64,000 bases of DNA. Origin: Clostridia bacterium (GTDB lineage: Bacteria > Bacillota > Clostridia > Oscillospirales > CAG-272). The notes beneath the pieces are model-generated. The model was not told the origin of the DNA, did not search any database, and saw only the letters and a list, made by a program, of their open reading frames with translations. Of this stretch, positions 9,061-9,319 are shown piece after piece; positions within the stretch are counted from its first letter, which is position 1; the number at the start of each line of letters is the position of its first letter. The translations under genes and the position numbers were made by a program. The stretch covers positions 201,414-265,413 of the forward strand of contig JAFSYU010000033.1 in NCBI GenBank assembly GCA_017443595.1, written 5' to 3'.

Positions 9061-9245
9061 GACGAGGGGGCTCTTCTTGGATTTTGCAAGGCAATTTGCA
9101 CGGCTTTCTTTGTGCGTGCCTTGCAAAATCCTACGGTCATCGCTAAAAACGATCCACCGGATCGTTTTCTTAACGCTTGTTCGAGCCCCCTCCATATCGC
9201 TTAGCATAACAAAAAACGGACACCGTTTGGTGTCCGTTTTTGTTA
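9061..9245. repeat. tRNA-linked hairpin-rich element, copy A (trailing tRNA-Val)
   Basis: - A 13-bp direct repeat of the tRNA-Val 3' part: gacgagggggctc at 9061-9073 equals 9250-9262.
- A 10-bp terminal inverted repeat: gagggggctc 9064-9073 / gagccccctc 9183-9192.
- Hairpins at 9079-9131 and 9146-9168.
- A terminator hairpin at 9209-9243.
- The core is homologous to 15361-15530. Confidence 0.8.
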
Positions 9246-9319
9246 TGGAGACGAGGGGGCTCGAACCCTTGACCTCTCGGATGTGAACCGAACGCTCTGA
9301 CCAACTGAGCTACGCCTCC
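9246..9319 (-). tRNA. tRNA-Val (anticodon CAC), CCA not encoded
   Basis: Hand-folded cloverleaf of 74 nt. Acceptor GGAGGCG/CGTCTCC, D-stem GCTC/GAGC, anticodon stem TTCGG/CCGAG with loop TTCACAT, T-arm AAGGG-TTCGAGC-CCCCT, discriminator A. Confidence 0.9.

Follow-up and report, generated by a model that had tools for sequence, protein, structure and literature searches.

tRNA genes are classic landing sites of phages and genomic islands, and insertion at the 3' end with restoration of the gene is the classic form that such events take. The integrative elements that target tRNA and tmRNA genes, among them tyrosine-integrase islands, prophages and ICEs, were reportedly classed by Williams in 2002 by their sublocation in the gene, one class being that of the T-loop. 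Elements of the T-loop class enter tRNA and tmRNA genes in their 3' part, share with the target a block of identity that runs from the T-loop to the 3' end, restore the gene with sequence that they bear, leave the old 3' end as a direct repeat and accrete in tandem. The element described here, of which two copies lie in a 64,000-nucleotide stretch of a Clostridia genome (the window), does all of this. Unlike the T-loop class, however, it measures ~190 bp, carries neither an integrase nor any other gene, presents one core at 17 targets, contains an extra inverted copy of the target that is absent from the classical attP and has its own terminator. To our knowledge, in all known insertions in tRNA genes the integrase is borne on a large element.

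CTXphi attP(+), the sites of other Xer-exploiting elements and the integron attC are recombination sites that function as folded single strands. Like the element, CTXphi attP(+) and attC contain inverted segments, tens of nt apart, that fold to a target-like duplex with an unpaired bubble; they conserve structure over sequence, have Watson-Crick stems, occur in tandem arrays and are served by an enzyme in trans, as the element presumably is. The likeness is one of analogy. The element's target is the T-arm and acceptor of a tRNA rather than dif or attI, and neither a XerCD nor an IntI site motif was recognised in it. We know of no CTXphi attP(+)- or attC-type site whose arms have changed to match many targets.

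Resemblances to other small or defective elements are partial. As with MITEs and REPINs (REP doublets moved by RAYT transposases), the element is small, non-coding, multi-copy, hairpin-forming and intergenic, and it shares with MITEs a polymorphism of presence and absence; MITEs and REPINs also often lie beside terminators and depend on an enzyme in trans. Its terminal inverted repeat, in contrast, is target-derived and copy-specific, each inverted arm being the T-arm of the local tRNA, and the family has no conserved terminal repeat. Nor is there a target-site duplication of fixed length: the "duplication" measures 8-21 nt with one end fixed, and the gene is restored. CIMEs, the cis-mobilizable, att-flanked products of ICE decay, likewise lack a recombination module and accrete at tRNA-type sites, but they are kilobases long, lineage-specific remnants of one ICE and have no structured core shared between targets. 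The searchable literature holds no description of such an element and, measured against that literature, Rfam and the sequence collections, what is new is the combination of a gene-less 190-bp unit, one core for many tRNAs and a target-derived inverted arm. The unit inserts, restores the tRNA and supplies a terminator at 17 tRNAs plus tmRNA, and the inverted target copy that it contains suggests recognition via a folded strand.

Anatomy of the two window copies

The window contains two tRNA genes, both on the minus strand, tRNA-Val(CAC), intact at 9246-9319, and tRNA-Glu(CTC) at 15531-15605, and each bears one copy of the same repeat family, at 9061-9245 and 15340-15530, respectively. In window orientation the unit is composed of a T-run terminator, the tRNA 3' end in reverse complement, the motif TTCTTG, hairpin 1, CTTCGGTCACCGCTAAAAAC, hairpin 2, TTTTCTTAACGCTGC, an inverted arm designated arm 'a', a short spacer rich in A and T, a palindromic terminator designated Tc and the tRNA gene. 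Across the family, units are about 145-200 bp long (~190 bp being typical) and lack ORFs, and ~110 nt make up the core with its two hairpins.

At the Val copy, all parts of which except the two-way terminator are given for the plus strand, the far-end direct repeat GACGAGGGGGCTC (9061-9073) is the reverse complement of tRNA-Val positions 57-69 and is identical to 9250-9262, the proximal repeat copy within the gene. Its last 10 nt (9064-9073) form the 5' arm of a closing stem, P1, in which GAGGGGGCTC is complementary to GAGCCCCCTC at 9183-9192. The preliminary description had recorded these direct and inverted repeats exactly, in every coordinate and string. Next come the junction motif TTCTTG (9074-9079), whose TCT-G positions are invariant in family alignments, and hairpin 1 (9080-9130), which appears in the DNA fold and has a 14-bp lower stem (9080-9093/9117-9130) beneath a variable upper part. 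The linker CTACGGTCATCGCTA (9131-9145; family consensus CTTCGGTCACCGCTA) encloses a nearly invariant near-palindrome, CGGTCACCG. It leads to hairpin 2 (9146-9168), in which AAAACGATCC and GGATCGTTTT form 10 bp around a 3-nt loop, and a second linker, CTTAACGCTTG (9169-9179; family consensus CTTAACGCTGC), follows. Arm 'a' (TTCGAGCCCCCTC, 9180-9192) is a 13-nt exact match to tRNA-Val positions 54-66 on the opposite strand and has two alternative partners, the far repeat at 9061-9073 (forming P1) or the tRNA gene's own 3' end at 9250-9262. The AT-rich spacer x (9193-9204) occupies the place that the acceptor strand would take in a perfect mirror image, and beyond it lies the two-way terminator Tc (9205-9247), which arrived with the element. 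With one bulged base the Tc palindrome reaches, on our reading, 2 nt into the tRNA 3' end; a gap-free search ends it 4 nt before that end.

The Glu copy, also on the plus strand, has a far repeat at 15340-15360, a core at 15361-15466, arm 'a' at 15467-15480 and Tc at 15493-15532. Its direct repeat is the full 21 nt, 15340-15360 being identical to 15531-15551 with the encoded CCA included. The two cores (9074-9179 and 15361-15466) align without gaps, as had been noted, but at 80% identity (85/106), lower than the wording "base for base" would imply; the differences within hairpins 1 and 2 are compensatory between the copies, as claimed. Single-strand folds of the Val and Glu units are much more stable than those of shuffled sequences (z = -11.1 and -12.5), and both pairings of arm 'a', with the far repeat to close the core and with the tRNA end to enclose Tc, were seen in the folds. 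These scores, together with the same architecture in ~100 further copies, establish that the element is not a product of chance.

Insertion at the 3' ends of tRNA and tmRNA genes

When one genome per species was scanned for an exact pattern, 48 loci were returned, most of them genuine copies and several per genome, the carriers being rumen and gut Clostridia MAGs (Ruminococcus, Christensenellaceae and unclassified Clostridia). A metagenome scan by the unpaired linker motif supplied further copies, and a core sequence profile then led to ~100 full copies. These ~100 further copies, from Clostridia MAGs and metagenomes, lie behind 17 kinds of tRNA plus tmRNA, the targets being Ser(GGA, GCT, CGA, TGA), Arg(ACG), Met, Glu(CTC), Val(CAC, GAC), Ala(GGC, CGC), Leu(GAG, CAA), Trp, Gln(CTG), Gly(CCC) and tmRNA. 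The tRNA-matching termini extend well past the Val and Glu loci; a restriction to these two, explained by recent gene conversion, would have counted against the preliminary description. In nearly all copies, the tRNA's or tmRNA's 3' end is located 58-69 nt beyond the core, on the other strand. A copy stands directly 3' of 64 of the 80 tRNA/tmRNA genes in element-bearing loci, in agreement with the tRNA-directed mechanism proposed at the outset; most of the remaining 16 are followed by another tRNA or by other inserted DNA ahead of an array, and in tRNA operons the element is placed after the last tRNA. A set of divergent relatives (L029, L088, L093, L094, L114, L119 and L128) keeps the architecture with a different core.

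Sharp boundaries mark the unit, and the direct repeat is fixed at one end and variable at the other. The inner start of the direct repeat falls at T-loop position 56 or 57 in 33 of the 37 scorable copies, which places the repeat boundary in the T-loop as had been suspected, and the outer end varies across the family to give repeats of 8 to 21 nt. The far repeat of the Val copy indeed lacks the last 4 nt of the tRNA, with ACTT in place of TCCA, but with an outer end that varies in this way the shortfall, which had been taken as a misfit to an attL/attR arrangement, is ordinary. In 44 of 51 copies, arm 'a' reproduces tRNA positions 54 to 66-68 exactly, in inverted orientation and over 12-15 nt, and the Tc palindrome enters the tRNA end by 1-8 nt in 35 of 46. 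From arm 'a' through Tc, the sequence therefore mirrors the tRNA's 3' half, with its only interruption facing the acceptor strand. We also considered arm 'a' as a direct copy of the 5' half of the T-stem; its loop part, GCTCGAA, is the reverse complement of TTCGAGC, which identifies the arm as a truly inverted 3' half.

Comparison with related tRNA-Glu loci, which had been suggested as a check and for which the locus was tracked in relatives through the neighbouring flippase gene, uncovered empty sites and identified the insertion. The site is occupied by 3.5 tandem copies in L150 (flippase 89% identical to that of the window), by one copy in L153 (66%) and by two to four copies in L011/L149, and it is empty in L159/L160 (76%) and in L091 (80%). 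Immediately after tRNA-Glu, the empty L159 allele has AAAAATCCTGCGCAAGCAGGATTTTT, which is homologous to the window terminator past the far repeat (15306-15339); this ancestral tRNA-Glu terminator, displaced past the far side of the Glu copy, has its homologue in both L159 and L160. Similarly, the terminator after tRNA-Glu in L091 is homologous to the one beyond the far repeat of L153. These homologies show that the original 3' end and its terminator were displaced by new DNA, and that the element is a true insertion with identifiable empty sites. Read in the sense of the tRNA, the inserted DNA comprises a new copy of positions 57-76, a new palindromic terminator, a short spacer, an inverted copy of positions 66-54, the two-hairpin core and CAAGAA. 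Tc, between the element and the tRNA, is part of the inserted DNA, and the old terminator stands on the far side. Insertion at the 3' end, restoration of the gene and retention of the displaced end as a direct repeat, the hallmarks of tRNA-targeting integrative elements, were all found.

Two other origins of the repeats were considered and rejected. A staggered-cut target duplication does not account for inserted DNA that carries target-specific sequence, nor for short far repeats that lack the rest of the tRNA after them. The primer-binding site of retroviruses and LTR elements presents a parallel, in that ~18-21 nt match the complement of a tRNA 3' end as far as the T-loop and adjoin a structured region; however, the repeats of the element are DNA-derived, and no reverse transcriptase lies nearby. 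At tRNA-Val, the repeats of the arrays run on into the genomic TAA trailer and not into CCA, contrary to what is expected if the far repeat were a cDNA of the mature tRNA, retroviral-style.

Tandem arrays occur in L002, L007, L011/L149, L014, L019, L030, L035, L043, L048, L091, L137 and L150, some with a terminator between units and some without; distal array units have shortened repeats, and truncated distal copies are present. Recombinants exist as well. In L068, a far end and core of the L070 type are joined to the arm, spacer, terminator and tRNA-Val(GAC) of L089, and in L123 and L141 the far ends derive from another tRNA; in all three, arm 'a' still matches the adjacent tRNA, save for one T-loop base in L141. 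The cores of L003 (Arg) and L034 (Trp), from the same MAG, are 93% identical and have a rare hairpin-2 variant in common, with unrelated spacers and terminators. Arg copies from different MAGs are 82% identical, and Ala(GGC) copies from different MAGs 92-99%. A first impression that cores cluster by genome rather than by tRNA was softened, both signals being present in these small samples, in which core similarity appears as a mosaic that sorts cleanly by neither tRNA nor genome.

The folded core and its interpretation

Covariation was assessed among 34 distinct cores that were gathered through the unpaired linker, with the stems unused in the search, and that thus constitute an unbiased sample. 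Ninety-six percent of cells are paired, two-sided changes occur at 12 of 27 pairs (98 cells), none of 500 shuffles reached the observed values, and slid controls were all far lower. The lower stem of hairpin 1 has two-sided changes at 6 of 14 pairs, with 98% of its cells paired, and hairpin 2 at 6 of 10; the unpaired linkers are near-invariant across the family. The stems, then, have not decayed freely in the further copies, and selection on a folded nucleic acid, which the two window copies had suggested, is upheld. As in folded single-stranded DNA sites, inverted segments fold to a target-like duplex, and structure is conserved while sequence varies.

The composition of the stems bears on the nature of the folded molecule. 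Watson-Crick pairs number 860, against 8 G:T and 9 A:C cells (~99% Watson-Crick), with no strand bias; the remaining non-pairs are mostly due to a register shift within one subfamily, and pairs that switch between A-T and G-C (e.g. 17:17) do so with no G-T intermediates. In the poorly conserved upper part of hairpin 1, plus-strand G:U pairs are in weak excess, 78 against 35 predicted. An assignment of strand from wobble pairs was tried and set aside, the covarying stems being unbiased and the weak plus-strand bias confined to the top of hairpin 1. This pattern fits single-stranded-DNA hairpins, or palindromes kept perfect by DNA-level processes, and fits RNA less well. As G:U pairs are almost absent, neither strand is favoured and a promoter was found at neither window copy, folded DNA is more likely than a discrete RNA.

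A search for an enzyme or carrier returned little that could be tied to the element. The unit contains no ORF and hence no integrase of its own, the genes beside both window copies are housekeeping genes without integrase or transposase domains, and no gene for a reverse transcriptase, an IS110 recombinase or an RNA-guided nuclease flanks the two copies, which sets the element apart from retron, bridge-RNA and guide-RNA modules with their adjacent enzyme genes. Clustering of flanking ORFs, with some clusters inspected by eye, linked no recombinase, Rep or transposase to the copies; it recovered mainly the synteny of the same tRNA contexts, and a few unrelated clusters were shared across contexts. 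The only recombinases that it found were large serine recombinases, in 5 element-bearing loci, and these belong to other islands. Viral contigs gave no match to the linker pattern and two to the hairpin pattern, taken as probably chance palindromes, and BLAST of the Glu-copy core against phage and plasmid collections found nothing; in the collections searched there was no free, circular, phage-borne or plasmid-borne form of the element. Compared with single-strand transposons of the IS200/IS605 or IS91 type, which insert 3' of a short conserved target (here it would be GGTTC of the T-loop) and have subterminal hairpins but no duplication, the element has a fixed junction after GTTC and hairpins, but its insertion comes with duplication of the tRNA 3' end, and TnpA and TnpB are absent nearby.

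The element is probably a non-autonomous, MITE-sized integrative element that inserts at tRNA and tmRNA 3' ends and regenerates the gene, its folded strand possibly mimicking the target. Precise insertion, regeneration of the tRNA and supply of a terminator are evident from the empty and occupied alleles; the mechanism that follows is a proposal. The substrate of recombination would be a folded single DNA strand, in which arm 'a' pairs with the tRNA-like segment and thereby offers a duplex copy of the target site to a recombinase acting in trans. Such a duplex would mimic the T-loop, the 3' strand of the T-stem and the CCA end, with an unpaired bubble at the acceptor, and the two hairpins and invariant linkers could serve as protein-binding or replication signals. 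If a circle or strand of unit length recombined with the target inside the 20 nt that they share, the observed order of parts would result, and tandem arrays could form by repeated insertion or unequal exchange. By analogy with CTXphi attP(+) and attC, an inverted partner of the tRNA-like segment may be exactly what a folded strand needs to present a duplex copy of its target; we know of no role for such a mirror-image partner in classical double-stranded attP sites. The folded-strand reading also fits the Watson-Crick-only stems, the absence of genes and the arrays. If this mechanism is true, single-strand, structure-based recombination, so far associated with dif and attI, would extend to tRNA genes, and the element would provide a compact natural example of a target-matched integration signal.

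Besides the absence of a linked recombinase and of a free, phage-borne or plasmid-borne form in the searches above, two points stand against an uncomplicated acceptance of this scheme. Occupation of tRNA-Glu across lineages whose flippases are 66% identical, together with the invariant linkers, also fits a benefit to the host under purifying selection. Moreover, no simple move to another tRNA is open to an element that brings along a tRNA 3' end of its own, and the scheme does not account for the spread over 17 targets; any such model predicts that cross-insertion creates a chimeric tRNA. The pTN3 integrase, a tyrosine recombinase shown to recombine with little sequence specificity (PMC5495485), may offer, by analogy, a lead to illegitimate first steps in a change of target. 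A bolder proposal, which we consider doubtful, is that the element retargets itself: upon arrival, the target would serve as template for the direct repeat, the inverted arm and the outer arms of Tc, for instance through synthesis that folds back or switches template about the terminator hairpin, so that one core could be re-aimed through the universal T-loop to any tRNA or tmRNA. The 93% identity of the L003 and L034 cores at Arg and Trp, the sharp 12-15-nt arm and the entry of the palindrome into each tRNA end are compatible with this proposal; the mosaic of core similarity makes retargeting indistinguishable from an exchange of cores between old tRNA-specific sublineages. If true, self-retargeting would represent a structure-guided integration system of an undescribed kind.

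Other explanations start from the same observations. That the linkers are nearly invariant while the stems covary, and that tRNA-Glu keeps the element across lineages of 66-89% flippase identity, are the reasons for retaining the idea of a structured non-coding RNA gene tied to its tRNA, even though we judge it unlikely. Such an RNA might be made by read-through in the sense of the tRNA and carry a tRNA-like 3' tail (T-stem strand, acceptor strand and CCA) closed by P1, as a mimic, a decoy or a spare 3' half for tRNA-end enzymes or toxins; alternatively, it might be made from the opposite strand, its 5' 20 nt antisense to the tRNA 3' end. The position of each window unit between two terminators and the plus-strand G:U excess at the top of hairpin 1 are in keeping with an RNA, but stems with almost no wobble and no strand bias are unlike those of typical RNA families, a strong terminator separates the element from the promoter of the tRNA, and the second one blocks the other side. 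A scan of both window copies found no sigma-70-like promoter on either strand; an internal candidate picked by eye, TTGCAA-N17-TAAAAA(C), was rejected, the last T of its -10 hexamer being absent in the family and the scan being empty. In Rfam 15, only tRNA and the neighbouring Gut-1 motif, which lies outside the element, scored above threshold in the window; a permissive search of 9000-9260 with E-values up to 10 returned nothing meaningful for the element, and at 15 related loci it had no match. An RNA gene would also leave the presence/absence alleles, tandem arrays and truncated copies unexplained.

It is conceivable, but on balance quite improbable, that the element is a domesticated module, selected by the host, homogenised by gene conversion and no longer mobile, for example a terminator and insulator behind the tRNA, or a decoy or second attachment site that absorbs phages and islands. 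Both tRNAs of the 64-kb window bear the element, which always puts a terminator where the old one stood; other islands do land in the repeated tRNA ends beside it, and the mosaic of core similarity is what exchange between resident copies would produce. Empty sites in sister lineages, however, function with the terminator that they already have, relatives range from 0 to 3.5 copies at a single locus, and a domesticated module gives no account of why an inverted T-arm copy and a pair of covarying hairpins should be needed. A further candidate origin is the decay of larger islands or prophages that bore an integrase and once occupied these tRNA genes, the copies being attL/attR remnants left as scars; partial tRNA 3' ends are a classic footprint of such elements, and the same loci contain other footprints of this kind. 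With the same 110-nt core at 17 targets at constant length and spacing, compensatory changes in the stems, no integrase beside the copies and no match in the phage, viral-contig and plasmid collections, an origin as island scars is largely refuted and highly improbable.

Neighbouring repeats and other insertions

Gut-1 (RF01706), an orphan Rfam motif for which the element provides a genomic context, occurs at 15234-15308 on the minus strand (72 bits), directly past the far-end terminator of the Glu copy and in the sense of the tRNA. A second occurrence, in L030 at 4898-4972, takes the same relative place behind a tRNA-Arg array, with a score of 45.7 bits that falls below threshold. In the window, the interval 15120-15310 forms a larger hairpin array in which GTGAAAT serves as the spacer and both orientations are present; a promoter-like site is located at 15054-15083.

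Another small repeat, CCGCTTGCGGTGCCCGAA...GGCTCGTCAAC, measures 118-124 nt and is found nested in the element after hairpin 1 or within hairpin 2 (L033 at 3477-3600, L069, L072, L024, L030, L140, L011/L149, L014, L026/L117 and L025) and also stands alone outside it (L089 at 293-410, and L115). Its left end is an inverted copy of the element linker CTTCGG(G/T)CACCGC, and it inserts at or beside this linker; no Rfam family matched it.

The tRNA 3' ends used by the element appear to receive other islands as well. One cluster of ORFs is represented in L130 (215-1798), L142 (1243-2838), L021 (32-3723), L139 (111-1286) and L075 (1004-2068); the L021 ORF, the inspected member, has a serine-recombinase-like start motif as judged by eye, and in L130 and L142 the ORFs adjoin a copy whose proximal tRNA ends after 6-7 nt. 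In L014, ~650 bp with one minus-strand ORF (490-1140) sits exactly between the element terminator and tRNA-Val, with three units beyond. Small insertions between a canonical element and the tRNA occur in L029 (2340-2480) and L028 (6580-6730), where the tRNA-Ser 3' end is also duplicated; the L029 insertion has an element-like architecture with an unrelated core, and that of L028 contains a T-arm-like fragment of another tRNA.

Several assemblies end at or right after the tRNA or element (L157 and L158, which are contig ends, and L058, L129 and L015), and in the MAGs that carry it the element family is probably a frequent reason why contigs end. More broadly, it could account for contig breaks and repeated partial tRNAs in assemblies of rumen and gut Clostridia. 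In L012, a CATTTG-spaced hairpin array at 1-130 takes the place of terminator and tRNA, and it resembles the arrays of the Gut-1 type.
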